Part shown: in pieces, positions 3 to 45,280 of the stretch
Numbering within the stretch: position 1 is the first letter of the stretch
How the letters are laid out: the number at the start of each line of letters is the position of its first letter
Source of the DNA: Thermodesulfobacteriota bacterium
GTDB lineage: Bacteria > Desulfobacterota_D > UBA1144 > Nemesobacterales > UBA2774
Direction: 5' to 3'
Length of the DNA: 64,000 bases
Assembly: GCA_965223335.1 (NCBI GenBank)
Contig: OZ244991.1
Coordinates: forward strand, 324,137-388,136
Made by a program: the position numbers and the translations under genes
Notes under the pieces: model-generated
The model's input: only the letters and a program-made list of their open reading frames with translations
Told to the model about the DNA's origin: nothing
The model's database searches: none

Positions 3-545
3 TTAAAACTCCTCGATAATCTCTTTTATGATACTCGCCGCATTTTTAATCACATTTATCTTGCGTATCGTCTCTTGCGAGTGTTTCTCAGTGCCCTCCT
101 CAAGCAGTAGTTCCGTGCTCCCTATGATTGTAGCAAGTGCGTTTTCGGTATCCGAAATAAGCTTTCGCTCAATTTCGTTTTTATACAGAGCGATCTCGAT
201 ACTTGTGGAGAGGTCTTTCTCCTCAAAAGGCTTTAGTATATAGCCGTAGGGTTTTGTTTTCTTTGCACGGGTAAGCACCTCGGGGTTAGAATAAGCCGTG
301 AGATAAAGCACAGGGATGTTGAACATGGATTTAATCTCGCCCGCGGCCGTTACCCCATCCATCTTACCCCCAAGCATTATGTCCATAAGTACAAGGTCGG
401 GTTTATGTTCCCGGGCCTTCTCAACAGCAGCCTCACCTGTGGAAACTATAATGGGCTTTTTGTAACCAAGCCCCAAAAGCGTGTCCTCAAGGTCCCTGGC
501 TACTATCAATTCGTCTTCTACTATTAAAATAAGCACGTCCGACAC
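3..545 (-). CDS. Response regulator: CheY-like receiver domain plus C-terminal DHp/HisKA-like helical tail without phospho-His
   Basis: 180-aa ORF with stop TAA at 3-5. REC signatures are LILIVEDE, acceptor Asp in DLVLMDIML, LYLTAYS and YILKPF. The tail ISDTENALATIIGSTELLLEEG..IIKEIIEEF resembles an H-box/DHp helix, but the His position is not His. Confidence 0.85.
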   Translation of the reverse strand: MSDVLILIVEDELIVARDLEDTLLGLGYKKPIIVSTGEAAVEKAREHKPDLVLMDIMLGGKMDGVTAAGEIKSMFNIPVLYLTAYSNPEVLTRAKKTKPYGYILKPFEEKDLSTSIEIALYKNEIERKLISDTENALATIIGSTELLLEEGTEKHSQETIRKINVIKNAASIIKEIIEEF

Positions 546-568
546 TCTATTTTCTCCTAACTCCCATT

Positions 569-2077
569 TTATCGGGGGAATGTAATTTCAAAACAGGTTT
601 TTTCACCCGTCTCCATTTTTACTTCCCCACCCAGCTGCGCAGTAAGGTCGGCAACCAGTCGTAAACCCAGTGTTTCTGAGTTCTCAAGGTCAATATTCTT
701 GACAAAAGATTTACCGTCATTGCCAATCCTCAAACAAAAGGCTGTCTCATCCCTTTCAAACTCTATATTTATGTTCCCTTCCCCACCCTCTGGGAAACCG
801 TGCTGGATGGCATTCGACACAATTTCGTTAATCAATAATGCGCATGGTATAGCAGAGTTGATATCCAAAAGCACTCCCTCGGATCTGATGTGCAGACTTA
901 TATTGTCTGACAAGGGTGAGTATGACCTAATTAGGTCACGGGCCATTTTCTTTATATAGTGCGAGAAATCAATCCTCGACATGTCTTCCGAGCGATAGAG
1001 CAGTTCGTGGAGCATGGCTATGGACTTAATCCTGTTTTGAATATCCTCGCACATCTGGTTAACCTCGGGGTTACTCATCTTTCTCGACTGCAACTTAAGC
1101 AGACTCATTACGATCTGTAAATTATTTTTTACCCTGTGATGCACCTCTCGGAGCAACACCTCTTTCTCTTTTAGCGACGCAGTTGTCTTCTCTTCGGCCC
1201 TCTTACGCTCCGAGACCTCATGCATAAGCATGGCATTGGATTTCACAAGCTCCACGGTACGTGCGTACACGCGTTCCTCCAGCTCCTCTCTAGCCTCCTG
1301 GAGTTCGGCCTGCGACTTCTTGATGGCCTCGGTCTGCCTTACATTGCTAAGCGCAACCTCGATCTGCTGTACTGCAAGCTCAACGAGATCCACGTCGACC
1401 TCACTAAATGCGTATTTCTCGTGTGACTGTATTTGGATACAGCCTTCGACCATGCTCTTGCTAAACAAGGGGACCGATATGTAACTCTTTACCCCTATAG
1501 TTTTCTCCAGGTTCTCCGAAGACGGGTCAAGGTCTGTGTCGGGCACACTCCGTGCGGCGCCCTCGTTGATCGTTAACCATGCCGAGCCTTCGGGGTATGG
1601 CAGTCTATTTAGCTTGCTGATCTCGGTTTCTTCGTACCCGTAGCTACCTTTTAGCAAGAGATCATTGTGGTGTCTGAGATAGATTAATATCTTCTCGGCG
1701 TTAGACATATATTTGCTTATGGTTTCGACAGAGTTAATAAAAACACTCTGTAATTGGCTTGAGGAATGCACGCTCTTTGCAATCGCTCGTATAATTTCCC
1801 CATAATCTCTATTTGTATCTCCCTTTAGGGGTTTTGTCTTGGTTTTATGCCCCACCGGTTCACCCTGAGTACTCTGAAGCTCATCAATCAACATCTCTCT
1901 CTCATGGATCATGTCCTCGAGCTTTTTGCATTTTTTCTCTAATTCCTCGTATTTGGAAAAGAGATCTTCATTCGTGTCGTCTACAGAGACCGACCCGGTG
2001 CTCGATTCCACATTTAACCCCTTTTCTTTTCTACTCATATGATCCATTTTATAAGAGCTTTGTGTTTTTAATGACAT
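569..2077 (-). CDS. Sensor histidine kinase, coiled-coil + GAF-like sensor + HisKA_2/HWE-type H-box + HATPase_c
   Basis: 502 aa. H-box [23 protein letters not shown] is typical of HisKA_2. ATPase motifs are [20 protein letters not shown] and LGLRLV. It lies immediately upstream, same strand, of the receiver gene. Confidence 0.85.
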
Positions 2078-2400: not shown

Positions 2401-2452
2401 GGATAAAGAAAAGGCATGATGGATTAAAATATCCATCATGCCTTTATTTTTA
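2401..2452 (-). terminator. Rho-independent terminator downstream of the OMP gene (symmetrical, could act bidirectionally)
   Basis: Perfect 15-bp stem aaaggcatgatggat (2410-2424) / atccatcatgccttt (2431-2445) with T-rich flanks on both strands. Confidence 0.6.
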
Positions 2453-3291: not shown

Positions 3292-3327
3292 GACATAAAA
3301 CAGGTTAATTTTCGTCCGAAACCTGTT
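3292..3327 (-). terminator. Candidate intrinsic terminator of the GTPase operon
   Basis: 8-bp stem aacaggtt (3299-3306) / aacctgtt (3320-3327). On the minus strand it is followed by TTTTATG. Confidence 0.45.
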
Positions 3328-3499: not shown

Positions 3500-4117
3500 C
3501 TATCTCTCTCTTAGATCCAGGTTATTAATCCTAAATCCTACTTCACTGCTATCCAGAAAATTGTTTACTGCATCTACAAAGGTCTCAAGCACACCGATAC
3601 CTAGACTCGCACTCGATGTAAAAAATGGGAACTGTATGCCTAATTTCTCATTCAAAAACGAAGTGATATCAACTGGTATATGCCCTACCAAATCGTGCTT
3701 GTTATACTGGATCACTAAAGGATAATTCCTCATTGAGTTGCAGCAATGCTTCAAGAGAATGTCCTCTAAATCATGAAAGGCTTCTACATTCTCCTCAAGC
3801 TTCTCGGGCCTAAGATCGATTACGAACACGACTGCGTCTGCATCGGACAATACCTGCTCTCTGATCTGTCTATAGGTTTCCTGCCCCGGGACTGAATACA
3901 CCGACACTTTTAAAAGATTCTTACCTTTGGTAAAAACCTTTTTAGAGATGTGGTCGAAGAACACAGTGCGTTCCCCCTCTTTGGTTAAAAACCCAGTGTC
4001 TATAGCCCATTTCTTGGCAAGCTCACGGACGTTTGTAGTTTTACCAACCTCGGGTGCCCCAGTATACACCAGTTTCATATTATAAAATTTTTTGCTTCCT
4101 ACCTTATGTACTTGCAT
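3500..4117 (-). CDS. mglA: MglA-family Ras-like small GTPase
   Basis: P-loop GAPEVGKTTN, switch I ERTVFFDH, switch II YSVPGQ, G4 VIQYNKHD. This is close to the remembered M. xanthus MglA (GPGLCGKTTN, DRTLFFDF, YTVPGQ, VIQYNKRD). I place the start at ATG 4117 (SD AGGTGA 5 nt upstream) rather than the GTG at 4126 in the ORF track. Confidence 0.75.
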   Translation of the reverse strand: MQVHKVGSKKFYNMKLVYTGAPEVGKTTNVRELAKKWAIDTGFLTKEGERTVFFDHISKKVFTKGKNLLKVSVYSVPGQETYRQIREQVLSDADAVVFVIDLRPEKLEENVEAFHDLEDILLKHCCNSMRNYPLVIQYNKHDLVGHIPVDITSFLNEKLGIQFPFFTSSASLGIGVLETFVDAVNNFLDSSEVGFRINNLDLRER

Positions 4118-4146
4118 TATAATCACCTATGTTCAGCGATGCATAT

Positions 4147-4644
4147 TCATCCCGTCTGTAGAATACTCTCCTTATTTGTATTAATGTCCGTAGGCATACG
4201 ATATAAGTAACAGATGACAGCAATACCGATCAACCCCATCGTAATTTGACCTATTATCATCGGGATAAAGAATATTATTGATGTACTCATCGTAACCGTG
4301 ATCAAAGCAATTGCATACAACTTTGTATTCTTAGGAATTACACCGTGTTTTCTCCAGTTGTGTATATATGATCCGAAAATACGGTTTGTCATTAGCCAAA
4401 CATAAAATCTGCGGGACGACCGCGCCCAGCACGCAGCCGTGAGCAACAAAAACGGAGTTGTGGGCAATATCGGCAAGAAAATTCCCAATAGACCTAATGC
4501 TAAACTCAGCATCCCACCGATTTGGAGCAGGACCCTGGTTACACCGCATTTTGCAAGCGCAACCTCTGCTTCGTAACACACTTGATTATCCTGGCTCTCC
4601 GCCTGTTGTGTAGTAACATCAATCAACCGCATTGTCTCTTGCAT
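4147..4644 (-). CDS. DUF454/YbaN-family inner-membrane protein
   Basis: LGIFLPILPTTPFLLLTAACWARSSRRFYVWL...NWRKHGVIP is the YbaN/DUF454 signature. About 4 TM segments. Overlaps the upstream gene by 22 nt. Confidence 0.75.
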   Translation of the reverse strand: MQETMRLIDVTTQQAESQDNQVCYEAEVALAKCGVTRVLLQIGGMLSLALGLLGIFLPILPTTPFLLLTAACWARSSRRFYVWLMTNRIFGSYIHNWRKHGVIPKNTKLYAIALITVTMSTSIIFFIPMIIGQITMGLIGIAVICYLYRMPTDINTNKESILQTG

Positions 4645-5606
4645 TCTCCAGTATGTGTATGTGAGAGCGTCCTTGCTTTCTTCAGAACCATTGCAAGATT
4701 AGCATCACACGGGACCAGCATACAGAGCACCGTACGCTCATCATTTCTCTGACGAATATATATATAGATATATGATTCCGTGATACACACCATTTCTTTG
4801 AAATAATGTTCCTTCGATACAACACCGTGTGCTCTTTTCCATATTCTCTCAATCTCAGAAACTTTTTCACCCTCGAATAGGCCTATTGCAGCGCTTGTGA
4901 TCACGTTAATTACCTCTACCGGGAGTTCTTGGCTAATCTTGACCGACAATAGATCAGAACTATCCAGATTAATCAAACCGCAAGCTATAACCCCAGGCAC
5001 ATCGTTAATACAATTTTCTACTATCGGATAAGGACTAGTACTTACAAGTGGAATAGTTTTGGATTGAGCAAGCTCGGGTGATTCGTTGAGAGTTTGTTCG
5101 GTGCGTGACTCAACTACCACGGGCGTTTCGTTTGTAGTATTTATACCGCTGTTTTGTTTAATAAAATCTTCGTAGTGATATACGAATTTTTCCTGCGCAT
5201 TAGTCTGGATGTAGCTCCTGTTGCGGCTTCGAATCTCTACTATTGCTTCTTTGGGGGTCCTACCCATAGACACGAGTGTACATGCCAGTATGGTTCCGGT
5301 GCGTCCGAGTCCCGCTTTACAGTGTACGAGCACAGGGACTCCGCAGTTTAGGTTTTTTACAATCTCGCTGCAAATCTTCTCAGCATTCCTGGGTGTTGGA
5401 ATACTCATATCGCGTATTGGAAAATGCCTGACATCAAACCCATTATCCAAGTATAGCGGATCAATTGGATCCTCAGTTAGAGTGACAATCAATTTTATTC
5501 CAATAGAGTCCAGGAACTCTATATCGTTCTCATGCACATCTATGAGACCTGGTCTCCCTGATCCGGCTAACTTTTTAGGTAGTATCCATTTGAATCCAGT
5601 AATCAT
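4623..5606 (-). CDS. Dual-specificity (Cys-based) protein phosphatase fused to a C-terminal Roadblock/MglB-like domain
   Basis: The N-terminal half carries the CX5R active site VLVHCKAGLGRTGT. After a Thr/Ser/Pro/Glu-rich linker, the C-terminal ~130 aa are paralogous to ORF 6645-7040. SD GAAGGA lies upstream. Confidence 0.7.
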   Translation of the reverse strand: MITGFKWILPKKLAGSGRPGLIDVHENDIEFLDSIGIKLIVTLTEDPIDPLYLDNGFDVRHFPIRDMSIPTPRNAEKICSEIVKNLNCGVPVLVHCKAGLGRTGTILACTLVSMGRTPKEAIVEIRSRNRSYIQTNAQEKFVYHYEDFIKQNSGINTTNETPVVVESRTEQTLNESPELAQSKTIPLVSTSPYPIVENCINDVPGVIACGLINLDSSDLLSVKISQELPVEVINVITSAAIGLFEGEKVSEIERIWKRAHGVVSKEHYFKEMVCITESYIYIYIRQRNDERTVLCMLVPCDANLAMVLKKARTLSHTHTGECKRQCG

Positions 5607-5632
5607 ATCGTTGTCCTTCGTCTATTTTATGC

Positions 5633-6427
5633 TCACGAACCCATTCTCACATAATACTTTGCTCTGGGGTGTGAGGGATTAGTAAAGAATTTATCGGCAC
5701 TTGCAGCTTCGATTATCTCTCCATCTACTATAAGAACAACAAAGTCAGCTACTGATTTGCTAAACTCAAGATTGTGCGTTGATAAAATAATAGTTTTTTT
5801 ACCTCGAATATCGTTTAATTTCGTTATTATCCACTCCATATGCTCTTCCCAAAGATTAGTATCGGGTTCATCGAGAACGAGATAGGAAGATCTATTACTA
5901 ACCGCAATTGTAAATAACGCTAATCTCTTCACATACTCCGGTAGCAACTCTAACGGTGTCTCGAGATCCGTTAAAGTTAAAAGAATCCGAGCCGCTTCCG
6001 GAACACACGTCCATGTGCGCTTGATTTTTTGTTTTATGTCACGTGTAGTGGGCCAACTTCTACTAAACAAATGATAAAGCGAAGCTTTTCCTAAATTATG
6101 TTTTTGAGTTAAGTATGATGGCTTACTATTTGGTAAAACTAGCATTCCCTTTCTAAACAGTTTATTGTTATCGTCATTGCTTTTTTCACATTCGATTTTT
6201 TTCTTATTATTATTTTCACGAAAATGGCAATCTTCGATTTCACAGTCTACAGCATCACATTGCCCGGCTAGTACTTTGAGCAAAGTGCTTTTACCGGCTT
6301 TACACAGACCCATCAAAACCGTTGTTTTCTTTTCGGGGAAATCAAATGAGAGGTCCTCAAATATATCGAATTGTCCATAACCAATTTTCACGTTACGTGC
6401 TGTTATCATTGTATTATTCCATCCCAT
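5633..6427 (-). CDS. PstB-like ABC-type ATPase with degenerate signature motif and Cys/Asn/Lys-rich insertion
   Basis: Walker A GLCKAGKST, Q-loop YLTQ, Walker B YLVLDEPD, H-loop LSTHN, PstB-like C-terminus FFTNPSHPRAKYYVRMG. The expected LSGGQ is replaced by LPEYV. An alternative start is ATG 6409. Confidence 0.65.
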   Translation of the reverse strand: MGWNNTMITARNVKIGYGQFDIFEDLSFDFPEKKTTVLMGLCKAGKSTLLKVLAGQCDAVDCEIEDCHFRENNNKKKIECEKSNDDNNKLFRKGMLVLPNSKPSYLTQKHNLGKASLYHLFSRSWPTTRDIKQKIKRTWTCVPEAARILLTLTDLETPLELLPEYVKRLALFTIAVSNRSSYLVLDEPDTNLWEEHMEWIITKLNDIRGKKTIILSTHNLEFSKSVADFVVLIVDGEIIEAASADKFFTNPSHPRAKYYVRMGS

Positions 6428-6644
6428 TCGTCATATATCTTATATGCAACATCCCTATTCCAATTCTGCCCATTCCCCAGATCAGGCATTATCAGTTCTC
6501 TTAATTCCAGTAAAAATGTTTTGTATTTAGGGCATTAAACCTTCTCAGCAACGCCGAGAATGATGTGATTTAATGCCCGTGTAGTCAATTTACTGGTTAG
6601 CTAAGAGAAACAACAAAAAAACTATAGCTAACACATCATAGGCA

Positions 6645-7040
6645 CTAAATAGTTTCGCTTGTGGCTATAGCCTTAGCCTTAGCCAATACCATACCTACGT
6701 TTGCATCTGCACTACATACAACACACATCACAGCTCTATCATTAGAATCCAAACGAGAAAAGTAATGCAATAGATGCTGTGAAAACACTATTATTTGATT
6801 GAAATAGTGTTCGTTTCCTTTCACACCTCTTGCCTTCTTGAAAATGTTCTCGATACTCACAACATTCTCGCCCTCATAGAGGTCCTTTGTGGCTGGTGCA
6901 AGAAGATCAACTACCTCTTGCGGGTGGCTGTCTACAGTCTTGATACCAAAAAGAATTCCAGTATCCAAATCGACTACACCTGCAGCTACAGCCTTAGGTA
7001 CGTCTTTCATACAGCTCTCAATGATCGTATCTACACTCAT
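6645..7040 (-). CDS. Stand-alone Roadblock/LC7 (MglB)-like protein, paralog of the phosphatase C-terminal domain
   Basis: Start moved to ATG 7040 (AAGGAGG 8 nt upstream). The track ORF extends to 7118. Shared motifs with 4623-5606 are DVP..A.G..(D/N)LD, EGE.V..IE.I.K.A.GV..EHYF, R.V.C....DAN..MVL.KA. The fold assignment is by pattern and context only. Confidence 0.6.
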   Translation of the reverse strand: MSVDTIIESCMKDVPKAVAAGVVDLDTGILFGIKTVDSHPQEVVDLLAPATKDLYEGENVVSIENIFKKARGVKGNEHYFNQIIVFSQHLLHYFSRLDSNDRAVMCVVCSADANVGMVLAKAKAIATSETI

Positions 7041-7415
7041 AGATAGATACCTCCTTAAAATTTTATTCAACATTATATCAAGCAACATCCATGCCATCAC
7101 TTGACTGTATGTAACCAATTATAATCATTGAATATAATCAATATGAGAAACTACAAAACAACAAGTTGTGAACCAATTTGGTAATGCTCAACGACAAAAA
7201 TTGTCATACGATAAGACATGACAATGAAGTATGTGAAAGTTTTAATATTGGTGAACTGCAGCACTTGACGCAACACCTCAACATCATTGATTAATACTTG
7301 ATATAGAGTGATAGAATTATGTCTTACAAGAAAGTGTCAGAATTTGCAACATGTAAGACGCGCCCGTAACTTTACCTCAGCACAACCTCAACCTAGAGCA
7401 AATTTCTTTTTTCAA

Positions 7416-7453: not shown

Positions 7454-7933
7454 ATGCTTAGAATGTCTAACCTAAATAAAATACTTTCGGACCATTTCTG
7501 TTTCAAAGGGCTTCATGATGCAGATCTACAAAACATAATCTCCAGAGCCTCGGAAGTACGGTTTTCGGAAGGTGATTTCATATTCAGCGAAGACGATGTC
7601 GCCGACCGATTCTATATTATATTAGAGGGCAGAGTAGCCCTTGAGACCAAGCTAGCACCCGATAGAGACCCCATTACAATTCAAACACTAGGCGCAAACG
7701 ATGTACTGGGTTGGGCATGGCTCTTTCCGCCACATACGGCACACTTCGATGCAAGAGCGCTCGACGATACCCGTGCAATCTCACTCGATGGCGATTACAT
7801 CCGCAATATGTGCGAGGAAAATCATGACCTCGGCTATGAGCTCTTTAAGCGCTTCACGAAGGTGATGCAGCAAAGGCTCCATGCTGTTAAGCTTCAAAAT
7901 CCCGATATGTATGTAGTGAAATCTAAACCATAG
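7454..7933 (+). CDS. Single-domain cyclic-nucleotide-binding (cNMP/Crp-like effector domain) protein, no HTH
   Basis: 159 aa. Motifs FSEGDFIFSEDDVADRFYIILEGRVALE and GANDVLGWAWLFPP...FDARAL. No DNA-binding domain follows. Confidence 0.7.
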   Translation: MLRMSNLNKILSDHFCFKGLHDADLQNIISRASEVRFSEGDFIFSEDDVADRFYIILEGRVALETKLAPDRDPITIQTLGANDVLGWAWLFPPHTAHFDARALDDTRAISLDGDYIRNMCEENHDLGYELFKRFTKVMQQRLHAVKLQNPDMYVVKSKP

Positions 7934-35717: not shown

Positions 35718-38700
35718 TTACTTCTTTCGCGAGAAATCATGGAGTAGGTTTAGGTTTGTGGTTACGAGGTCGTGTACATCGGGAAAATCCTTTTTCGTAA
35801 AAACCTTAAGCGCCTCGTTATAAGCCTCGATCGCTTTTTCGCAATTCCCAGCCTTGTTTTGAATCTCTGCAAGTGTGGTATATGCCCCACCTATGTTGTT
35901 TTGGGTAGTCGCGTACTGCATGGGGTATTGCTCTATTGTGTAGATAATAAGTGCTGTTTCGTAGGCCTTAATCGCTTTTTTACAGTTCCTAGCCTTATCC
36001 TCCGATTCGGCCAAGGTCCTATAAACCACACCTAAGTTGTTCTGTGTACCCGCAAATTGAATCGGAAACTGTTGAATGGAGCGCACCTTGAGTGCTTCCT
36101 CGTATGATTTTATGGCCTTTTTGCAGTTTGCAGTCTTCTCCTCTACATCGGCAAGGGTCCTAAATGCTGTGCCCAGGTTGTTTTGTGTCGAGCCGTACTG
36201 TACCGGGTATTCATCCTTGTTATACACCCTAAGTGATTCGTTATAGGCTTTTATAGCCCTTTTACAGTTCTTGCCCTTATCCAGGGCTTCGGCAAGGGTC
36301 CTGTAAATGACCCCAATGTTGTTCTGCGTGGCAGCATACTCAACCGGGTATTCGTTTACGGTGTAGAATTTGAGTGTTTGTTCATAAGCCTTTATGGACC
36401 TCTTGCAATTGTTCTCGGTATCCTCATACTCAGCAAGGCTCTTATAGAGTGCTCCAAGGTAATCCTGAATAGTAGCATACTCGTCTGGGTAACTCTGGAG
36501 GCTGTAATAATTTGTGCATAACTCATATGCCTCACACGCTTTTTTACAGTTTGCTATTCGGTCCTCCCATTCTGCAAGCGCCCTGTATATATGGCCTATG
36601 TTCCTGTTAATAAGCCCGTAGTCTGCGAGCGAGGTCTCGGGGGTATAGACCTTCAATGCGTCTGTGTACTCAGAGATGGCATTATGATAGTTCTCTTTTA
36701 CCTGCTCGCCGTTCTCGGCAAGTTTACCGTATGCTATTCCGGTATATTTTTTTATCTCTCCATACTCCAGCGGGTTCGTGCTTCTTTTATAAATTTTAAG
36801 CGACTCACGATACGCATTCGTGGCCCTGATATAGTTGGCAATCTCTCCCTCGACTTCTGCAATAATGCTCGAGGCAAGCCCCACATTCTTTTGCACGGCA
36901 CCGTATTCTGCGGGGAATTTATCAGGATCGAAAACTTGGAGCGTCAGCATATAAGAGGTCACAGCCTCTTTATAATGTGTGATCTCTCCCTCAATCTCAG
37001 CAAGTGTGATTAAGATGTCGCCAATATTTTTTTGAATTACACCGAACACAAACGGCGATTTGCCGACTGAGTAAATCTTTAGCGATTCGGTGTAGCAATC
37101 GATCGCCTTTCTCATTTTCTTAATGTCGCTATCGGTCTTGGAATACATATGATACGTATAGCCCAGGTTACGATATACCAACCCGTACTGTGTAGGGTAG
37201 TCGGCTCTATTATAGACCTTTAACGACTCCTCATAGGATTTGATCGATTTCCTAAAAGCATTGGGTTTGGCCCCTTCCTCTGCGATCTTTCGGTATGAAT
37301 TTGCAATCTTATAATGTGCGTCTGCAAATTCTTCGGGCGAGGTCTCAACATCGAGTGATTTGAGCGCATTTTCGTGGAACTGAATAGCTTCTTTGGGATC
37401 CGCAAACTCCTCTGACTCCGCTTGATCGGGCATCTCGGCACTATCGCGCACAGCCTGTTCGGTTGTTTTCTCTACTGTAATGGTCTTTGTGTCTGAAGCA
37501 GCTTTTTTCCTCCTCCGCTCTTTTACCTCTTTTAATTCCACAACTTCTGCAATCTCTTCTTTTTTTGTTTCCGTTTCTTTTTTGTCGGGTGAAGGGATTT
37601 TTGCGGCACGTAAAGATGCTACGGCTTCTTTGGCTTTGTTGTAGACCGACTCGGCATCGTTGTGCAAATCAGGGCTGTCCTTTTTGTTATAAACCAATAG
37701 CGCCTGCCGAGAGGCCTTGAGTACATTGTTGTAGAGTGTCGGGCTTTGATCGAGTTCGGCTAATTGAAGGTAGAGGTTTGAGAGTTTGTACTGCACAAAT
37801 CCATAATCTTCAGGTGAGTTATCTAATGTATAGAATTCCAGTGCTTGCTCGTAGGAACTGATGGCTTTTTGAATATTATTTTTGGAACTCTCTGTTTTCA
37901 GGAGCTCAGTATAGGCAGTGCCTAGGTTCTTATGGGCACACGCAAACTCCTCTGGGCTATCCTCGAGGTTATATCTCTCGGCGGCTTTCTCATAGAATAC
38001 TATATCATTGCCTTCCTCAGACAACACATTTTCCAAGACAATAGGTTCTTCCTCATTCTTGACTTCTTCTGCACGTAACTGCTCGAGGACCTCGTTTGAG
38101 TTCGTTATCCACTCGCGAACTTTTGCCAGTGTATCCTTGTCGGTAATTACTTTTTCCGCTTCCTCAAATGCATCGAGAGCCTTGGTGTGGTTCTCCTCCT
38201 TTTTATCCTCATCCGTGATTGAGCAGAGTGCTATCCCCAGCATAAGTTTTGTCAGTGCATACTCTTGTTCATCCTTTTGGTCCTTATAGTGCTTGAGTGC
38301 CGAGTTATAGTACTCAACGGCCTCATTGTACTTGGAGTGATCTTTATCGCTTGAGGCCTGTGCGCTGTAGGCATCGCCAAGGCGCTTTGAGATCGATGCG
38401 AACCTAAGCGGCATAACTTTTGGGTCTAGTAGTTCCAGTGTTTCTTTTAAAATAGCGAGCTCTTTATCCGGGTCTTTATGGGCCGTTTCAGAGATTAATA
38501 CGAATCTTTCTATGATTTGATCATAAAGCTCAGGGGCATGTTTCTCTAGATTGTGGGTGTTGTAAGCACCAAGTGCATCACGCACATGGCCAAGAGCTGC
38601 CTCGTTATCGTTTGAGTCCTGCGAGCTTTCGGAAAGTCCTAAATAAGCCACTGTGAGCTTTTTAGATACCGAGTCGTAGGGCTCGGGCTCTTTGTCATGG

Positions 38701-41700
38701 TCTAGGTTTTGAAGCACGCTATTGTAATATTCCACGGCCTCGATCAGGTTCGAAGACCTGTCCTTGCTATCGGTATGATTTACGAGTGTATCGGCTAATC
38801 TAAGCTCTAGCCCCCCATAAATCTTAGCCATTGTGCTTTTATCACAAAGAGTTAAAAGTACTTTATAGATCCCGATCTCTTTAACCCTGTCTTTGTGCTC
38901 AACTGAAGAAATCGCATCGCTAAAATCACTTAGATCTTGATCAATCCCCATTTTTTCGGGATCTAGCCCGGCTGATGCAAATGCTTGATATGCATTGTTA
39001 AAGGCTTTAACAGAGTTTATTAAATCCTTGGGCTCACCCTTCTGCTTAGCACAAAGTGCATGTGCCCGCCCAAGCCTACTTTGAGTAAGACCAAAATCCC
39101 CGGGGTTGTGGTCTTCCGTAACATACCCGCTAACGCTTTCGAGATACCTAACGGCATCGGCAGCTTTGTTGTCTCTCAGACACTGCTCTGCCACACGCAT
39201 ATGCAGGTTTCCCAGATTCGTTTTGATACTATCAATATCATCAGCAGCTTCGGCTTCGAGAACCTTATTGTAGTATCCAACAGCACTCGTAAAGTTGTCG
39301 TGTTCACCACTCGTTTCGAATAACTCTTTTTGAATATCCCCTAGTCGCGTGCAAAGTGCGCTATGCTCAACCGCCATCTGAGACTCATCCGTAATCTCGA
39401 GCACACTCTCCAAGAGATCAGTTGAATGCTCTCCTGCTTCTATCTCTTTCTCTAAAACGGTTTTAACAAGACTCTTTATGCCTTCGATTACCTCTTGATA
39501 TTTCTCTGGCTCGTTTTCTTCACTGTACACACTTAGTGAATTCTTATACGCTTCAATTTCGTTTGTTATGTAATCGGATTTAGTATTTAGCTCATTTAGC
39601 AACCCGTAACTATGAGCGATCTGTTTTTGTATCTGGGCGTACTGCTCGGGGTATTTTTCCTGTGTATAGAGGTTTAGTGCCTCGCCTAATGCATCGATAC
39701 CCCCGGTTAATTTGTCTATATCCTTTGCGGACTCCCCTTCCGATAACAACAGTTCCCCTATTATTTTCGTTATCTCTGCATAGTCCTCGGGGTGATCACT
39801 CGAATTATAGAACTCGAGTGCGTCCCGATACCTTGATACTGCTGAGTCTAGGGACTCATCCCGACCGAGTTGGGCAGCAGCTTCAACATAAAGATCCCCC
39901 ACCACACGGTTCACATTTCCCAGCGTTTGCTCTTTGGTGTCTTTAGCCTTGGCTGCGGTGGCTGCCTCATAGAACTGAATGGCACTTAGGTAATCATCTT
40001 TATTCCCTGACTCCCTGGCAAGATCGGTGTATAGGGAACCGAGCTTGATTTGCACCGATTCCAGGTTCTCGCACATAGCATCCACATCAAATTTTTCCAA
40101 GATCTGTTTGTAAAGCAAAACCAGATCATCACTCTCAAGTTCAAGCCCGTTTAACAATTCCACTACCCGTTTTAGTGCAAACGAGATATTCTCCAATCCA
40201 ACTTCATTTTTATCCGCCTCATATGCCACAAGCGCACCGTGGTATGCGTTTAGCGCGTCTGATATGTGGCTCTTATCCTTAGTTCCTTTGGCTTGGTTGG
40301 AGTAAGAGTCCCCAAGGGCCTCTTGAATAGATGCGTAGTTGTCCGGGTGATTGTCTCTATCAAATATCTCAAGGGCCCTAACAAGATACTCCCTGCCCTG
40401 TTCGTATGCATCTTTTTCGACATGGCTTATCCCCGCTTCCAGCAAGGCGTTGCCGAGGCTCTTCTGAGACTCAGTATGCTCTGCACTATCCAAATCCTTA
40501 GCACTTAAATCCCGCGCCTTTTCATAATGCTCCACAGCCCGCTCACTGTTACTCGCGAACTCCTCTTGTCGTGATAGCGTAATATAGGCGTTGCCCATCC
40601 GCAGATGAATACCGGCATGCTCTAGGGGTTGATCACTATCAGCGTAATAATCGAGGCAGTCCGTAAAATTCTCGAGCGCTAATTTATATCTTTCTACATC
40701 ATTTTCCTTCTCGGCAATTAATGCATAGATAGAGCCGATCTCTTTTTTAAGCAGTGCATATTCATCAGGATAATCGTCCTTTCCGTAAACTTTAAGGGCT
40801 TCCTCGTAGGCCTCTATGGCCATTGTACTGTTTTCCACTAAGCCCTTCTCGTCCTCAAACAATCGGTACACGTCACCCAGCTTCTTTAGCGTTGCCGCAT
40901 ACTCAACCGGGGAGTGCTCAATATCGTAGCTCTTTAGTGCTTTTTCATAGAAGCTAATCGCTTGGTAGGGATCGCTTAACTCTGTTTCCCCAACCAGTTC
41001 ATAGCTCTTAGCCAAGAGTTTCTGCAATTCCATGTGCCCTGCGGGGTATTTATCTTCGGTAAACACACCTAGTGATTCCTCAAGATACTGGGCAACTTGA
41101 GTGAGATTAACATCTTGCTCTCGATCCTCATACAATTCCAGATACGCATAACCTAAACCCATATTGATAAACCCATAATTAAGAGGCGAGGCATCTTTAT
41201 CGCATTGCTCCAAAGCGGCTTTTAGCTCTGATATTGCCGCCTCATAGCTATGAGTCTTATGTTCGTGCTCAGCTATGGATAGATAAGCAATGCCAAGATT
41301 CTGCTTTAGCTGCATCCGTGTTGCTTTCAGAGTGTCCTTGGGTTGGGAGCTATCTAACTCTTTATACAGATTAAGAGCTTCTTTGTAACCCTCGGACTCT
41401 TGAGTGCACCAAGCACGCATCAGATGCGTAGAAGCAATATCCATTTCAATCGAACTCTGTTTAGACTCCGCAGCGACCTCGGAATAGATCTCTTTTGCAT
41501 CACTGAGTGCAGTCAAAGAGGTTTTGAAACCCTCCTCTGACGAACACTCTGTTGCAGCGCTTCGTGTATCGAGCCCGATATTTCTATTTAATAACGCTTC
41601 TCGGTACCTATATCCCTCGGCACTGTAAACATCCAAAGAAGATTTGTAGTAATCCAGAGACTTATTAATCCCCTCACTCTCATGGCCGTCTGATAATGAT

Positions 41701-44700
41701 GAGTTCACTACACCGAGGCTATTTTGCGCCCGGGCCCGATCAAGCTCGAACCCCTTATCCTCGTATATATCGAGACTCTGTTCCAGCATCCCATGTGCTT
41801 CCTCGAGATGTTCGGTAGAACTCTCGAGCACAGATAAACCATGTTTTGAGATTGCGAGGTTTGACAAAATGTCGGCTCTCAGCAATTCGTCGTTACCGCT
41901 TTTCACGCTGTTTAGTGCTTGGCTAAGCAGTTGATCAGCCAACTGTGTATCCTTAGAGGACGCTTCTATGGACGATAGGAAATTATGAGCTGCACCCAAA
42001 TTACTCTTTACCGTAGCGCACTTACGTGGATAGCCCTCTATCTCGGGAGTATCTAGAACTTCGTTTAGAATCTCTATGGACTTTTTACAGTTTTTTACAC
42101 TGTCCTCGCAATCGGCCAGTGTTAGGTATGCGGCACCCAGGTTATTACGAATCTTTAGATGGTTAATCACACTATCACCAGAGTCATACTCCCTAAGGGC
42201 CCTCTCGTAGGCCTGAATGGCCTTTCTACTGTTCTTTGCCCTATCCGTTTTTTCGGCCAATGACCTGTAGATATTGCCCAGATTGTTTAGTATCAGAGCC
42301 GAGTATTTTTCGTTGCCCTCTCCATCCAATACTCTAAGAGCATCCTCATATGAGGCCTCGGCCATATCTATTGACTTGGTCTCTTTAGAGATTCTTGCAA
42401 TGTATGAGTAATTTAGGCCCAGTTTGCACTTAAGCTCCCCGTAATCCTCGGGAAAATCGCTCTCGGTAGAGATCTCGAGCGCGGATAAATAGTAGTCAAT
42501 CGATTTCTCAAACTGCTCCAAATCCAGTTTGTATATACCCAGATTTCTATAGATATCGCCTAAATTACTGCAGATCATTGCGTATTGGAGAGGATAATCA
42601 CCAAAAGTATAAAATTTGAGAGCGTTCTCATAGCATTCAATAGCGTCATCAAAATTCCCAGATTCGCTTTGAGCACGGTAAAGCTTTTGTAAAGCAAGGC
42701 CCATGTTGAATTGGATCATGCCAAATTTATCAGGGTAGTCCTCCGAGACATAAACCCTAATTGCCTCTTTATATGAATCTATAGCTTTACTCGAGTTGTG
42801 GGCCTCATCCTCAACATCCGCAAGTGTGCTGTATGCAACACCCAGATTGTTATGGGTCATTGCATAATCCAATGGTGCCTCCTCTATGTTCCTTATCTTA
42901 AGGGATTCTTCATAAGCCTTAATAGCCCTCTTTGAGTTCTCCGCAGCACCGTGTAGTTCGGCAAGCGTGCTGTAAGCGTTGCCCAAATTGTTGTAGGTAG
43001 TCGAGTATTCTTGGGGATATTTGCCAAGGGTATATATCTCTAAAGCCTCACGATAACACCCAATGGCCTTAGTGCAATTAGCGCTATCGTTCTCAATCTG
43101 AGCCAGCATGTCATATGCGGCACCCATATTATTTAGGAGAGATGCATATTCAGCGGTCGATTTATTTTTCTTATAGTAGTTGTATGCAGTGGTATATGAT
43201 TTGATAGCGTCCACACAATTTGCACCCTCACCCTCATACTCGGCTAAAGTCCTGTAGGCATCGCCAAGCAGTTTTGACACAAATGCGTACTGCTCTTTAT
43301 TTTTAAGAGCCTTGTACTGATGCATCGCCTTTTTGTAGGAATCGATTGCTTGCGAGATGTTACTTGCAATGGGTCCGTTGTGTTCAAGCAAGAGGTAAAT
43401 ATCACCTAAGGTTCTTAGTAGCCCTGCACTCTCTTCTTTTTCATCCAAAGCATTAAAAACATCTAAAGCGCTGTTTAGCACCTCGATTGACTCTATTAGC
43501 TGATTCTCTCCCCCGGTGTCTTGTTCACGCGAGAGTTTAAACTGTGCAATCCCCAAGTCTCTGGTTATGGTTGCAAAATCCAATGGATAGTTGTCTTTGT
43601 TAAAATAAGTTAGAGCATCACTAAAGTCTTCAAGTGCAGTCTTTGCGTAATCATTATTTGGTTCCGCCTCTACAAGTGAGATGTGCACATTGCCTTTATT
43701 TCTTTTGATGTCTGCGCATTCGTACGGATTATTACCGGTGATATAAAACTCCAGAGCACTATCGTATGCCGCGAGCGCATTGTTGTAGTTCTCAACCGGG
43801 TTCTCTGCCAACGCCAGCGTTGTAAACGATAGGGCTAGGTTTTGGTTTATTATTGCGTTTATCATAGGGTCTAAGTCACTGGACAATGCGGATTTGTAGT
43901 AAGTAATAGCTTTTTTACAGTTCCTAGTTCTATTGCGGTCAAAGCCTTGTATGGTGTGAGCAAGACCCAAATTGTTATTTATATGAGTGTGAATTGCGGG
44001 GAATTGTTCTTTTGTAAAATAGCCTAGTGCATTCTCGTAATGCTCAATTGCAATATCACAGTTTTCACTCCTGGAACTATACGCAGCCAAAAGCACATAG
44101 AGATCAGCAATATTGCGTCTCGTATTAGACACTACGTCCTCGGCGTGGTCTTCGTTCTCTATAATTCTCGTGAGCAGCCCTAATGCTTTACGATACAATT
44201 TAATTCTTTGCTCGGCACTACAGTCTTCTTCTTTCGCAAGTTCTCTATAGAGATAGCCCAAAAAACTGTTTATTTGCCAAGGCATATCGCTTTTAATTCT
44301 GCTCTCTATGCCCTTTAGCCTTTTTACTATCTTATCCAGCTGATCTACGTTAAAACCTTTTTCATCAAAGTAGATCTCGGACAGTTCGAATGCCAAGTCG
44401 CTGGATTGATTGGTCTTATTCTTGTTTATATTCTTAACCGTTGATAAAGCGTCAACCAGATAGACCTCGATGGTATGGCGTATATATTTAGGCAAATAAT
44501 GGGATATACGCTCGTATGGGCTACCCTGTTCGCTTGATCTAAGGTCGCTATCGACAGTGATTGTTGGGAAGCTGTCGGTCTGGGTTAAGTTAGAGATAAA
44601 GGTTTTTGTTAAACCGGTATCATCACTTTGTTGCGTATGCGATTCGTCTGAGCTAAGAGCCGTTTTTTCATCCTGAATAGTAAGTACGGATGTGTTGTTG

Positions 44701-44996
44701 CCCCTAAGAAAACCGTACTCATATAAAAGTGCCGGGCTATAACCGTCTAGCACCAAAATCCCCAAAGCCGTGTCGGTCGCAAGTTTTTCAAACCGCTCCC
44801 TAAATTGACTGGGGCTAGTATTTTTTTCGGTTATGGATTCAACCTTAAACCCATACGACGACAGGACATCTCTAAGAGGGTTTACAATTTCATTTACATA
44901 CTCTACGTCGCTATGGTCGGGGTGTACGATAAGGCAGGGAATCTCGCCTTGAGTAATCAGCTTGTTTATTGCATTTAGACTTCGGTTCGCTTTCAT
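35718..44996 (-). CDS. Giant (3092 aa) TPR-like repeat protein with N-terminal Rossmann/TIR-like domain
   Basis: Uninterrupted 9279-nt ORF. Most of the length is ~47-aa helical-hairpin repeats with consensus N(C/S)xKAIxxYEEALK(I/V)Yxx..YP..YA.TQNNLG.AY..LA. No signal peptide, TM segment or convincing Walker A seen. Confidence 0.9.
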   Translation of the reverse strand: MKANRSLNAINKLITQGEIPCLIVHPDHSDVEYVNEIVNPLRDVLSSYGFKVESITEKNTSPSQFRERFEKLATDTALGILVLDGYSPALLYEYGFLRGNNTSVLTIQDEKTALSSDESHTQQSDDTGLTKTFISNLTQTDSFPTITVDSDLRSSEQGSPYERISHYLPKYIRHTIEVYLVDALSTVKNINKNKTNQSSDLAFELSEIYFDEKGFNVDQLDKIVKRLKGIESRIKSDMPWQINSFLGYLYRELAKEEDCSAEQRIKLYRKALGLLTRIIENEDHAEDVVSNTRRNIADLYVLLAAYSSRSENCDIAIEHYENALGYFTKEQFPAIHTHINNNLGLAHTIQGFDRNRTRNCKKAITYYKSALSSDLDPMINAIINQNLALSFTTLALAENPVENYNNALAAYDSALEFYITGNNPYECADIKRNKGNVHISLVEAEPNNDYAKTALEDFSDALTYFNKDNYPLDFATITRDLGIAQFKLSREQDTGGENQLIESIEVLNSALDVFNALDEKEESAGLLRTLGDIYLLLEHNGPIASNISQAIDSYKKAMHQYKALKNKEQYAFVSKLLGDAYRTLAEYEGEGANCVDAIKSYTTAYNYYKKNKSTAEYASLLNNMGAAYDMLAQIENDSANCTKAIGCYREALEIYTLGKYPQEYSTTYNNLGNAYSTLAELHGAAENSKRAIKAYEESLKIRNIEEAPLDYAMTHNNLGVAYSTLADVEDEAHNSSKAIDSYKEAIRVYVSEDYPDKFGMIQFNMGLALQKLYRAQSESGNFDDAIECYENALKFYTFGDYPLQYAMICSNLGDIYRNLGIYKLDLEQFEKSIDYYLSALEISTESDFPEDYGELKCKLGLNYSYIARISKETKSIDMAEASYEDALRVLDGEGNEKYSALILNNLGNIYRSLAEKTDRAKNSRKAIQAYERALREYDSGDSVINHLKIRNNLGAAYLTLADCEDSVKNCKKSIEILNEVLDTPEIEGYPRKCATVKSNLGAAHNFLSSIEASSKDTQLADQLLSQALNSVKSGNDELLRADILSNLAISKHGLSVLESSTEHLEEAHGMLEQSLDIYEDKGFELDRARAQNSLGVVNSSLSDGHESEGINKSLDYYKSSLDVYSAEGYRYREALLNRNIGLDTRSAATECSSEEGFKTSLTALSDAKEIYSEVAAESKQSSIEMDIASTHLMRAWCTQESEGYKEALNLYKELDSSQPKDTLKATRMQLKQNLGIAYLSIAEHEHKTHSYEAAISELKAALEQCDKDASPLNYGFINMGLGYAYLELYEDREQDVNLTQVAQYLEESLGVFTEDKYPAGHMELQKLLAKSYELVGETELSDPYQAISFYEKALKSYDIEHSPVEYAATLKKLGDVYRLFEDEKGLVENSTMAIEAYEEALKVYGKDDYPDEYALLKKEIGSIYALIAEKENDVERYKLALENFTDCLDYYADSDQPLEHAGIHLRMGNAYITLSRQEEFASNSERAVEHYEKARDLSAKDLDSAEHTESQKSLGNALLEAGISHVEKDAYEQGREYLVRALEIFDRDNHPDNYASIQEALGDSYSNQAKGTKDKSHISDALNAYHGALVAYEADKNEVGLENISFALKRVVELLNGLELESDDLVLLYKQILEKFDVDAMCENLESVQIKLGSLYTDLARESGNKDDYLSAIQFYEAATAAKAKDTKEQTLGNVNRVVGDLYVEAAAQLGRDESLDSAVSRYRDALEFYNSSDHPEDYAEITKIIGELLLSEGESAKDIDKLTGGIDALGEALNLYTQEKYPEQYAQIQKQIAHSYGLLNELNTKSDYITNEIEAYKNSLSVYSEENEPEKYQEVIEGIKSLVKTVLEKEIEAGEHSTDLLESVLEITDESQMAVEHSALCTRLGDIQKELFETSGEHDNFTSAVGYYNKVLEAEAADDIDSIKTNLGNLHMRVAEQCLRDNKAADAVRYLESVSGYVTEDHNPGDFGLTQSRLGRAHALCAKQKGEPKDLINSVKAFNNAYQAFASAGLDPEKMGIDQDLSDFSDAISSVEHKDRVKEIGIYKVLLTLCDKSTMAKIYGGLELRLADTLVNHTDSKDRSSNLIEAVEYYNSVLQNLDHDKEPEPYDSVSKKLTVAYLGLSESSQDSNDNEAALGHVRDALGAYNTHNLEKHAPELYDQIIERFVLISETAHKDPDKELAILKETLELLDPKVMPLRFASISKRLGDAYSAQASSDKDHSKYNEAVEYYNSALKHYKDQKDEQEYALTKLMLGIALCSITDEDKKEENHTKALDAFEEAEKVITDKDTLAKVREWITNSNEVLEQLRAEEVKNEEEPIVLENVLSEEGNDIVFYEKAAERYNLEDSPEEFACAHKNLGTAYTELLKTESSKNNIQKAISSYEQALEFYTLDNSPEDYGFVQYKLSNLYLQLAELDQSPTLYNNVLKASRQALLVYNKKDSPDLHNDAESVYNKAKEAVASLRAAKIPSPDKKETETKKEEIAEVVELKEVKERRRKKAASDTKTITVEKTTEQAVRDSAEMPDQAESEEFADPKEAIQFHENALKSLDVETSPEEFADAHYKIANSYRKIAEEGAKPNAFRKSIKSYEESLKVYNRADYPTQYGLVYRNLGYTYHMYSKTDSDIKKMRKAIDCYTESLKIYSVGKSPFVFGVIQKNIGDILITLAEIEGEITHYKEAVTSYMLTLQVFDPDKFPAEYGAVQKNVGLASSIIAEVEGEIANYIRATNAYRESLKIYKRSTNPLEYGEIKKYTGIAYGKLAENGEQVKENYHNAISEYTDALKVYTPETSLADYGLINRNIGHIYRALAEWEDRIANCKKACEAYELCTNYYSLQSYPDEYATIQDYLGALYKSLAEYEDTENNCKRSIKAYEQTLKFYTVNEYPVEYAATQNNIGVIYRTLAEALDKGKNCKRAIKAYNESLRVYNKDEYPVQYGSTQNNLGTAFRTLADVEEKTANCKKAIKSYEEALKVRSIQQFPIQFAGTQNNLGVVYRTLAESEDKARNCKKAIKAYETALIIYTIEQYPMQYATTQNNIGGAYTTLAEIQNKAGNCEKAIEAYNEALKVFTKKDFPDVHDLVTTNLNLLHDFSRKK
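35740..37410 (-). repeat. C-terminal block of about 12 well-conserved ~141-bp (47-aa) coding repeats
   Basis: Consecutive units KNCKRAIKAYNESLRVYNKDEYPVQYGSTQNNLGTAFRTLADVEE, ANCKKAIKSYEEALKVRSIQQFPIQFAGTQNNLGVVYRTLAESED and so on. The DNA shows the same period, but copies are diverged. Confidence 0.8.
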
Positions 44997-45151: not shown

Positions 45152-45184
45152 GAAGCGGGGTTATGAGTATCCGAATCCCGCTTC
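45152..45184 (-). promoter_or_regulatory. Hairpin directly 3' of the aptamer (candidate expression platform/terminator)
   Basis: RNA GAAGCGGGAUU..AACCCCGCUUC forms an ~11-bp stem, followed by UAUGUAGUUUUAUGUU. Confidence 0.45.
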
Positions 45185-45280
45185 GGCAACCCAGCCGCCG
45201 ACTAGTGCTTATCCAAGCACCTTAGGCCTGTGGTTTTGCGTCCCATCTTTTCAGATGGTTTGCCCCTTCGTTCCGGGACC
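45181..45280 (-). promoter_or_regulatory. c-di-GMP-I (GEMM-I) riboswitch aptamer
   Basis: The minus-strand RNA ..GGGGCAAACCAUCUGAAAAGAUGGGACGCAAAACCACAGGCCUAAGG...GGCUGGGUUGCCGAAG matches the remembered Vc2 aptamer core block by block: GGGCAAACC, GAAA-capped P2, GGGACGCAAA, GGCCUAA, GGGUUxCCGA. Confidence 0.8.

Follow-up and report, generated by a model that had tools for sequence, protein, structure and literature searches.

A Roadblock-fold protein, an ABC-type ATPase and a Cys-phosphatase as a conserved bacterial gene trio, with a phosphatase fusion and an MglA-type GTPase in a Thermodesulfobacteriota variant

Roadblock proteins are ancient regulators of small GTPases, from MglB to Ragulator, and their non-GTPase partners are poorly known. 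A 64,000-nucleotide stretch of contig OZ244991.1 from a Thermodesulfobacteriota bacterium (hereafter ‘the window’; all positions follow the numbering of this whole stretch) bears on this point through five co-directional genes on its minus strand. They encode, in this order, a stand-alone Roadblock-fold protein (RBL), an ABC-type ATPase, a phosphatase fused to a second Roadblock-fold domain (RBLc), a DUF454 protein and an MglA-type GTPase (Table 1). An earlier note on this DNA had delimited the same five open reading frames (ORFs), all of which are confirmed here, and had read them as an operon built around the GTPase. Is an MglA-type GTPase the centre of this unit, or do its Roadblock-fold proteins serve other partners?

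A trio conserved across phyla

The RBL family occurs at no fewer than 265 places among species-representative genomes, and the 80 best of these loci, searched with the window proteins and family hidden Markov models (HMMs), form the set to which the locus counts below refer. In 59 of the 80, the genes for RBL, the ABC protein and the phosphatase are adjacent, in this order and on one strand. These loci span at least eight phyla, and the lineages carrying the trio are Bacteroidota, Myxococcota, Acidobacteriota, Gemmatimonadota, Nitrospirota, Acidimicrobiales, Gammaproteobacteria and Sericytochromatia. Small GTPases, counted with an iterated GTPase HMM within 8 kb, were found in only 20 loci and in none of the other 60; in 46, the trio stands without a GTPase. 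The evolutionarily conserved unit is the trio of RBL, ABC-like protein and phosphatase, and the GTPase is not its centre, contrary to the operon first proposed. The earlier note had held that its proposal would fall if the small domains escaped the Roadblock/LC7 profiles and the gene order was not conserved: the profiles indeed fail to match, whereas the order is widely kept for three of the five genes, and the fusion and DUF454 genes recur as a pair in two relatives.

The trio is apparently a widespread and undescribed module, and the window a rare variant of it that carries the phosphatase–Roadblock fusion, DUF454 and a short MglA-type GTPase. The composition of the locus had seemed new at first sight, and no description of a Roadblock–ABC–phosphatase module was found in the searchable literature, whose coverage is incomplete, so that absence is not proven. 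Cultured carriers include Plesiocystis pacifica SIR-1, Pseudofulvimonas gallinarii DSM 21944, Nannocystaceae ST9 and Ca. Uabimicrobium amorphum.

Unbiased clustering of the genes around the 80 loci returned recurrent neighbours that all belong to signalling: PAS-HATPase sensor kinases directly upstream (38/80), a family designated X26 (26/80), sigma-54 response regulators (18/80), Fer2-globin proteins (13/80) and Hanks kinases (10/80). X26 is a helical protein of ~360–400 residues encoded immediately upstream of RBL, mainly in Myxococcota and Acidobacteriota (for example L008:6761-7894, L049:6173-7900 and L086:5802-7004), for which neither a Pfam or PDB match nor a P-loop was found. The planctomycete Ca. 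Uabimicrobium amorphum (L082:5151-11698, AP019860.1) has the order RBL, Hanks kinase, ABC, phosphatase–RBL fusion, RBL, Hanks kinase, and a sigma-54 activator is encoded upstream; kinases stand here in the places that GTPases take at other loci, and no GTPase is present. The whole trio is tandemly duplicated in two genomes (L054:5541-9649 and L059:7968-11970). Several genomes, among them Nannocystaceae ST9 and Plesiocystis pacifica SIR-1, hold at least two RBL loci at separate places, some of which lack part of the trio.

A Roadblock fold missed by sequence profiles

RBL is the founding member of an uncatalogued Roadblock-fold family. Its 141 homolog clusters are nearly all exactly 131 residues long, share 50–70% identity across phyla and contain no Pfam domain. 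Invariant residues of RBL are SHPQ, E64, K68, R71-G72, Y79-F80 and R96. Pfam Robl_LC7 matches neither of the two window domains nor any of 32 family members; the MAPKK1_Int (MP1) model gives faint, sub-threshold matches to the same proteins (E = 0.02–0.15), and searches of the PDB with phmmer and with the family profile found nothing significant for Roadblock, a Robl_LC7 chain appearing at E = 1.1. With sequence profiles having failed, the fold call was settled by structure prediction and Foldseek. The AlphaFold2 model of RBL (predicted local distance difference test score, pLDDT, 90.5) has an alpha-beta-beta-alpha-alpha-beta-beta-beta-alpha topology, and all 50 Foldseek matches listed for it are Roadblock-fold proteins, with a probability of 1.0 and template-modelling (TM) scores of 0.54–0.71 normalised to the query. 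The best matches are to Roadblock/LC7 and MglB proteins (E = 2e-8 to 3e-7, TM about 0.7); the 50 include a Streptomyces Robl (3kye, the top match), MglB, MglC, Asgard Roadblocks and LAMTOR.

RBLc was modelled with the same topology at pLDDT >90, and it aligns with RBL at 36% identity over 125 residues (E = 1e-32), making the two domains paralogs. In the alignment, RBLc is without the SHPQ motif of the family and has QELPV instead. Both small domains are thus predicted to have the MglB/Roadblock fold; the Roadblock identity given to them at the outset holds by fold and paralogy, but not by the Robl_LC7 profile. The locus thereby exposes a Roadblock-fold family that current profiles miss and whose fixed partners are an ABC-type ATPase and a phosphatase.

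An ABC-type ATPase without its signature

The second protein of the trio matches Pfam ABC_tran (31.6 bits against a cutoff of 25, 3e-7) and nucleotide-binding domains (NBDs) in the PDB down to 4e-11. The earlier description of it as PstB-like is right in that PstB is its best NCBIfam match, but that match reaches only 73.8 bits against a cutoff of 343.2 and lies mainly in the C-terminal third. The protein shares Walker A and B, the Q-loop and the H-loop with PstB and other ABC NBDs, and these elements are conserved in a 49-sequence alignment of the family, whereas the signature position is not; the window protein has LPEYV where LSGGQ would be expected. The degeneracy suspected from the window sequence is therefore real, and because the signature is unconserved family-wide, it is a family trait rather than decay. 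No permease family was found among the recurrent neighbours of the 80 loci and no permease in the window unit, nor are binding-protein genes adjacent, which also sets this protein apart from PstB. Since the signature is lost, the Walker, Q- and H-motifs are kept and no permease neighbours it, the protein probably works as an NTP switch rather than as a transporter of the canonical ATP-sandwich kind. A lineage-specific insert of ~30 residues, rich in Cys, Asn and Lys (residues ~58–88, with C61, C66, H67 and C79), is absent from 48 of 48 aligned relatives and could be a metal or redox site.

The phosphatase and its fusions

The phosphatase domain has an intact CX5R motif in its P-loop, H95-C96-KAGLG-R102 (HCKAGLGRT), and its active-site motifs, including D66, are invariant in 63 family members. 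It matches the Pfam models Tc-R-P (82 bits, 5.5e-23) and PTP-SAK (70.5 bits, 2e-19), both with a cutoff of 27, as well as DSPc (3e-7) and PTP-NADK (2.5e-9). The AlphaFold2 model of the domain (pLDDT >94) is matched by Foldseek to DUSP23/VHZ at 33–34% identity and a TM of 0.86, and also to SsoPTP, Tk-PTP, Cdc14, PTPMT1 and PTEN. With VHZ/DUSP23, SsoPTP and Tk-PTP, it has in common a catalytic domain of ~150 residues, the HCxxGxxR(T) motif and the general-acid Asp, at 28–34% identity and TM up to 0.86. Those enzymes stand alone, whereas here the catalytic domain is joined to a Roadblock domain and, in most relatives, to an ABC ATPase. Its substrate is presumably a phosphoprotein, given that VHZ/DUSP23, SsoPTP and Tk-PTP are its closest relatives and that kinases are frequent neighbours.

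The covalent link between a CX5R phosphatase and a Roadblock-like domain, read from the gene alone in the earlier note, is borne out by a model with two confident domains and a disordered linker; its predicted TM (pTM) score of 0.56 indicates no fixed inter-domain orientation. Among 255 homologs of the phosphatase domain, 175 are ABC–phosphatase fusions, 62 stand alone, 11 have multiple phosphatase domains, one is not assigned to any of these classes and six are phosphatase–Roadblock fusions, the window’s and five others. This last class is very rare: an exhaustive scan of 1.84 billion representatives returned only two other clusters that match the fusion over its full length. Because the phosphatase is found fused to either protein (175/255 to ABC, 6/255 to RBL), a Rosetta-stone argument suggests that it contacts both.

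In close relatives, the phosphatase is joined to a globin domain of bacterial type (L086:8079-9155 and L087:4599-5675), and in the 13 loci counted above the phosphatase gene is followed by one for a Fer2-globin protein (for example L023:7135-8001). These globin links hint that O2, NO or redox state feeds into the module.

Small GTPases at related loci and in the window

Two kinds of GTPase accompany RBL. One is MglA Group-1-like, with (T/S)VPGQ and NKxD motifs and usually a long C-terminal tail; the other is the GTPGQ type seen in conservons. A second and divergent paralog of RBL is present in 10 of 15 loci with an MglA-type GTPase, compared with 4 of 65 without one (odds ratio ~30; p = 1.4e-6 in a Fisher test that takes the loci as independent though they are phylogenetically related). 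The suggestion that a duplicated Roadblock domain goes with the GTPase thus gains statistical backing, and the window follows the rule, its second paralog being part of the phosphatase fusion. Classical Robl_LC7 and DUF4388 genes are present at GTPase-bearing loci as well: among the small ORFs lying between RBL and a GTPase, two are Robl_LC7, two are DUF4388 and one matches only the MP1/LAMTOR3 model, below its cutoff.

Three loci from metagenome-assembled genomes of Gammaproteobacteria (L033, L042 and L055) combine both GTPase types with an ABC–phosphatase fusion. In L033 and L042, each with two RBL paralogs, the genes run GTPGQ-type GTPase, RBL2, RBL, long MglA-type GTPase, ABC–phosphatase; L055 has one RBL and carries the ABC–phosphatase gene on the opposite strand. 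A metallophosphoesterase gene comes directly after this array in L033 and lies upstream, on the opposite strand, in L042.

The window GTPase is short. It matches Pfam Ras at 4e-12, and its best PDB relatives are the MglA proteins of Thermus and Myxococcus (2e-20, compared with ~1e-7 for Rab/Ras). MglA Group 1 is defined by an intrinsic Arg finger beside the G2 Thr and by TVPGQ in place of DxxGQ (Wuichet & Sogaard-Andersen 2015, PMC4316618). In the window protein, GER50T51 aligns with ERT in the MglA proteins from Thermus and Myxococcus, and G3 reads S75VPGQ79, where the Asp is absent, VPGQ is kept and Ser replaces Thr; its P-loop (G20APEVGKT27) and G4 motif (N139KHD142) fit GxxxxGK[ST] and NKxD. 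Roadblock-fold domains that escape Robl_LC7 lie upstream of it, the fused copy two genes away and RBL four. Judged by these motifs, the window GTPase is MglA Group-1-like, in agreement with its first annotation. It represents an isolated lineage, with a best homolog only 40% identical among 5.8 billion proteins.

The gene between fusion and GTPase was correctly recognized as DUF454, and its Pfam score is far above the cutoff (Table 1). The pair formed by the fusion gene and a following DUF454 gene recurs in two metagenomic relatives, L090 and L091 (E = 7e-46 and 4e-29 to the window DUF454), which makes DUF454 a conserved partner in the fusion sub-lineage and not in the family at large.

Proposed working of the module

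We tentatively favour, at a little less than even confidence, a reading of the region as a cytoplasmic, membrane-tethered signalling module, in which RBL, the signature-less ABC protein and the VHZ-like phosphatase form a complex. The ABC protein would be an ATP-dependent switch instead of a pump, binding and gating the phosphatase. RBL, as a Roadblock dimer, would provide an adaptor or regulator platform that docks an NTPase as MglB docks MglA. In the window, RBL would form a heterodimer with the fused RBLc and recruit the MglA-type GTPase in its GTP form; RBL:RBLc would stimulate GTP hydrolysis through the GTPase’s own Arg50 and Gln79. The state of the GTPase would in this way be coupled, at the membrane, to the action of the phosphatase on a phosphoprotein, and DUF454 would provide the anchor. 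In support of this proposal, it is established that Roadblock domains serve as platforms for GTPases (PMC3747258, PMC4316618), and overlaps or short gaps join the ABC, fusion, DUF454 and GTPase genes. If true, it would establish a direct link between NTPase switching and Cys-phosphatase signalling in bacteria and put the ABC fold to a new use, that of a regulatory switch. The window version, in which the phosphatase is tied covalently to a Roadblock domain beside an MglA-type GTPase, would be the most explicit natural ‘wiring diagram’ of such a coupling.

Several points weigh against this proposal. Its interactions and activities are predictions from sequences and structural models. RBL’s general partner cannot be MglA, because 60 of the 80 loci are without a GTPase, and the p-value for the second paralog comes from loci that share ancestry. 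A distance tree groups the window GTPase with ordinary, short, canonical MglA proteins, outside the clade of module-linked GTPases, and orthology with the long module-linked GTPases was rejected on this basis. No GTPase follows DUF454 in L090, the closest fusion-bearing contig. Since the window GTPase falls outside the module-linked clade and is missing from L090, its linkage to the module may be recent or incidental, and its recruitment looks independent. RBLc has lost conserved family residues and may be a mere tether. RBL shows stronger conservation than is usual for an MglB-like protein (50–70% identity across phyla) and could have a different role, such as ligand binding. Finally, the long spacer and stable hairpin that follow RBL, described below, could separate it transcriptionally from the other four genes.

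The proposal can be widened to the whole family, as a phylum-spanning switch in which a Roadblock dimer regulates the signature-less ABC protein as MglB does MglA, the ABC protein gates the phosphatase, and MglA-type GTPases, sensor and Hanks kinases, or globin and Fe-S sensors plug in through extra Roadblock paralogs. This generalization is possible, if rather unlikely as a whole. It would amount to a prokaryotic counterpart of Ragulator-type scaffolds, with the state of an NTPase coupled to protein phosphorylation. In Ragulator/LAMTOR-Rag, as in the Asgard Roadblocks, a Roadblock heterodimer is a membrane-anchored GTPase platform, and LAMTOR2/3 are among the structural matches of RBL. The likeness is confined to fold and logic, at 10–20% identity; the anchor would be DUF454, not p18, and no Rag-type GTPase is present.

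Alternative explanations

The best-surviving alternative keeps the trio and dispenses with the GTPase. RBL, with Roadblock proteins taken as regulators of NTPases in general, would regulate the signature-less ABC ATPase, which controls the phosphatase, and the MglA-like gene would be an independent passenger that happens to be adjacent. The 46 loci in which the trio stands without a GTPase agree with this, as do the dominance of ABC–phosphatase fusions and the lack of a phylogenetic relation between the window GTPase and the module-linked ones. An external activator of the ABC protein is also plausible here, because the motif for canonical dimer-driven hydrolysis is absent. However, the window GTPase gene follows DUF454 after only 29 nt that hold a ribosome-binding site and no terminator. 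In addition, two unrelated GTPase types have been recruited repeatedly, the second RBL paralog correlates strongly with MglA-type GTPases, and Robl_LC7 genes occur at the GTPase-bearing loci. We consider this explanation unlikely, though it deserves to be taken seriously.

The MglA-centred explanation takes the region as an expanded mglBA operon, with both Roadblock copies acting as GTPase-activating proteins or guanine-nucleotide exchange factors and with the ABC protein, phosphatase and DUF454 as accessories that modulate GTPase cycling. It draws on a GTPase with Group-1 hallmarks whose best matches are solved MglA structures, on the match of the Roadblock fold to MglB, on the correlation between the second paralog and MglA-type GTPases, and on three loci (L002, L005 and L029) where RBL paralogs and a GTPase occur without ABC or phosphatase within 8 kb. 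The system of Myxococcus xanthus and Thermus thermophilus (MglA/MglB, with MglC and RomY) is similar in several respects: its GTPase, with an intrinsic Arg and (T/S)VPGQ, stands beside Roadblock-fold proteins; MglB superposes on the RBL model (TM about 0.7), and there is more than one Roadblock paralog, MglB and MglC. RBL differs in being undetected by Robl_LC7 and far more conserved than MglB, and mglBA has neither an ABC-type ATPase and a Cys-phosphatase as conserved partners nor a Roadblock–phosphatase fusion. The near-constant partners of RBL are the ABC protein and the phosphatase (59/80) rather than a GTPase (20/80), most family loci having none; the window GTPase is without a close ortholog and does not occur on the nearest fusion-bearing contig, and protein kinases fill the corresponding positions in Ca. 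Uabimicrobium, which has no GTPase. On this evidence, we regard an MglA-centred operon as distinctly unlikely.

It is very improbable that the phosphatase acts on a lipid or on nucleotide-derived phosphate, like PTEN and PTPMT1 or as the PTP-NADK model would suggest, with DUF454 as a membrane link and the GTPase and ABC protein serving only to localise it. The PTP-NADK match, the presence of PTPMT1 and PTEN among the structural matches and the membrane protein conserved beside the fusion could be so explained; yet in structure and sequence it is protein phosphatases (VHZ/DUSP23, SsoPTP, Tk-PTP and Cdc14) that match best, protein kinases are recurrent neighbours, and DUF454 is confined to the fusion sub-lineage.

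A conflict system, with the phosphatase as toxin domain and the other genes as immunity or regulatory functions, is hardly credible and was rejected: the best Pfam model, Tc-R-P, is titled ‘Polymorphic toxin system, DSP-PTPase’ and the NCBI name for the homolog in Ca. Uabimicrobium is ‘putative toxin’, but PADLOC gives only generic ABC-ATPase similarity, the proteins have no delivery or secretion domains and no extra N-terminal domains, the loci are chromosomal among housekeeping and signal-transduction genes, and the very high cross-phylum conservation is atypical for arms-race genes.

Relation to conservons

Actinobacterial conservons (CvnA sensor kinase, CvnB Roadblock, CvnC DUF742 and CvnD GTPase) and the mycobacterial Mfp system are also cassettes of Roadblock and GTPase genes. 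The resemblance extends to the sensor histidine kinase directly upstream in 38 of the 80 related loci, to the Streptomyces Roadblock 3kye as top match of RBL, and to the GTPGQ-type (Group 2-5-like) GTPases at some related loci. Unlike the window, conservons have no ABC or phosphatase genes (PMC4316618), and the window GTPase has SVPGQ, not GTPGQ. Among the small ORFs tested that separate RBL from a GTPase at related loci, none matched DUF742/CvnC. No kinase belongs to the window unit; the GAF-HisKA_2 kinase lies beyond another gene and a terminator. Membership of the window in the conservons was rejected for want of DUF742, of a GTPGQ GTPase and of a kinase in the unit.

Gene layout and signals of the window

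The coordinates of the module and of the features around it are collected in Table 1. The RBL reading frame extends at its longest to 7118; since its homologs are all 131 residues long, the ATG at 7040 was taken as the start. Spacing between the genes is tight for four of the five, as had been said of them all: 26 nt separate the ABC and fusion genes, the fusion and DUF454 genes overlap by 22 nt, and the 29 nt between DUF454 and GTPase carry an AGGTGA ribosome-binding site 7 nt upstream of the GTPase. The spacer from RBL to the ABC gene (6428-6644) is unusually long at 217 nt; in most related loci, this distance is a few to ~100 nt, or the stop-to-stop ORFs overlap.

Table 1. Coordinates of the module genes, their domains and the surrounding features of the window.
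Feature	Position	Strand	Evidence or remarks
RBL, stand-alone, 131 aa	6645-7040	-	Roadblock fold by predicted structure and Foldseek
ABC-type nucleotide-binding protein, without transmembrane partner	5633-6427	-	Walker A G40-K46-S47, Q108, Walker B D186-E187, H218
Phosphatase–RBLc fusion gene	4623-5606	-	
Phosphatase domain, aa 1-152 of fusion	5151-5606	-	VHZ/DUSP23-like; Cys96, Arg102, general-acid Asp66
Disordered linker, aa 153-189	5040-5150	-	pLDDT <50 for residues 166-181
RBLc, fused Roadblock-fold copy, aa 190-318	4623-5039	-	Family HMM 6e-51; paralogy to RBL
DUF454/YbaN-type small inner-membrane protein	4147-4644	-	Pfam DUF454 128.9 bits (cutoff 35.1), 1e-37, full-length
MglA-type GTPase, short, 205 aa	3500-4117	-	P-loop G20-K26-T27, R50-T51, S75-VPGQ79, N139-KHD142
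Sigma-54-type -24/-12 element TGGCAT-N5-TTGCT	7081-7096	-	41 nt upstream of RBL; candidate promoter of unit
Extended -10 TGATATAAT	7072-7080	-	Abuts the sigma-54-type element
Shine-Dalgarno AAGGAGG	7050-7056		Strong; before RBL
Stem-loop in RBL-ABC spacer	6530-6578	-	Minimum free energy -37.7 kcal/mol, z = -4.0, 0/200 shuffles as stable
Outer-membrane beta-barrel protein	2479-3141		Gene following the GTPase
Terminator	2410-2445		Perfect 15-bp bidirectional hairpin
GAF-HisKA_2 kinase and response regulator pair	3-2077		Kinase at 569-2077
Cyclic-nucleotide-binding-domain protein, stand-alone	7454-7933	+	Divergent from the module’s promoter region
c-di-GMP-I riboswitch	45182-45274	-	72 bits, E = 3e-12
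3092-aa ORF	35718-44996	-	Immediately downstream of the riboswitch

The spacer contains no credible small ORF. It folds into a stable stem-loop, whose arms are perfect 10-nt inverted repeats and which has no U-tract immediately 3' of it. This hairpin could be an attenuator, or an element that stabilises the transcript and keeps RBL in excess over the downstream genes. The hairpin that had been taken for a terminator of the unit, at 3299-3327, folds no better than shuffled sequences (z = -0.1) and is absent from the results of the terminator scan. A convincing terminator is first reached past the next gene, between the beta-barrel gene and the kinase and response regulator pair.

Upstream of RBL, the sigma-54-type element is a candidate promoter of the unit, as suggested by its sequence and position. 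The motif TGGCAYN5TTGCW has this single exact match in the window, where 0.19 would be expected anywhere. No sigma-54 activator (GAFTGA) is encoded in the 64 kb; such activators are recurrent neighbours in related loci (the 18 counted above) and occur in Ca. Uabimicrobium. As a family-wide feature, a sigma-54 promoter was rejected, since the element was found upstream of RBL in 1 of 80 loci, compared with 2.9% of control windows.

Neighbouring features of the window

The GAF-HisKA_2 kinase and its response regulator were rejected as parts of the module, from which a strong terminator separates them. They resemble only kinases that lie several kb off in four loci, not the RBL-adjacent kinases. 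Fumarase C shares 70% identity with its counterpart in a Ca. Dadabacteria metagenome-assembled genome, a tentative pointer to the placement of the organism. No homolog of the cyclic-nucleotide-binding-domain protein, encoded on the other side of the promoter region, was found near RBL among the 80 related loci. Far from the module, a cyclic di-GMP (c-di-GMP) riboswitch stands directly before the ORF for a protein of 3092 residues, which suggests, from this arrangement, c-di-GMP control of a very large and perhaps surface or adhesin-like protein.

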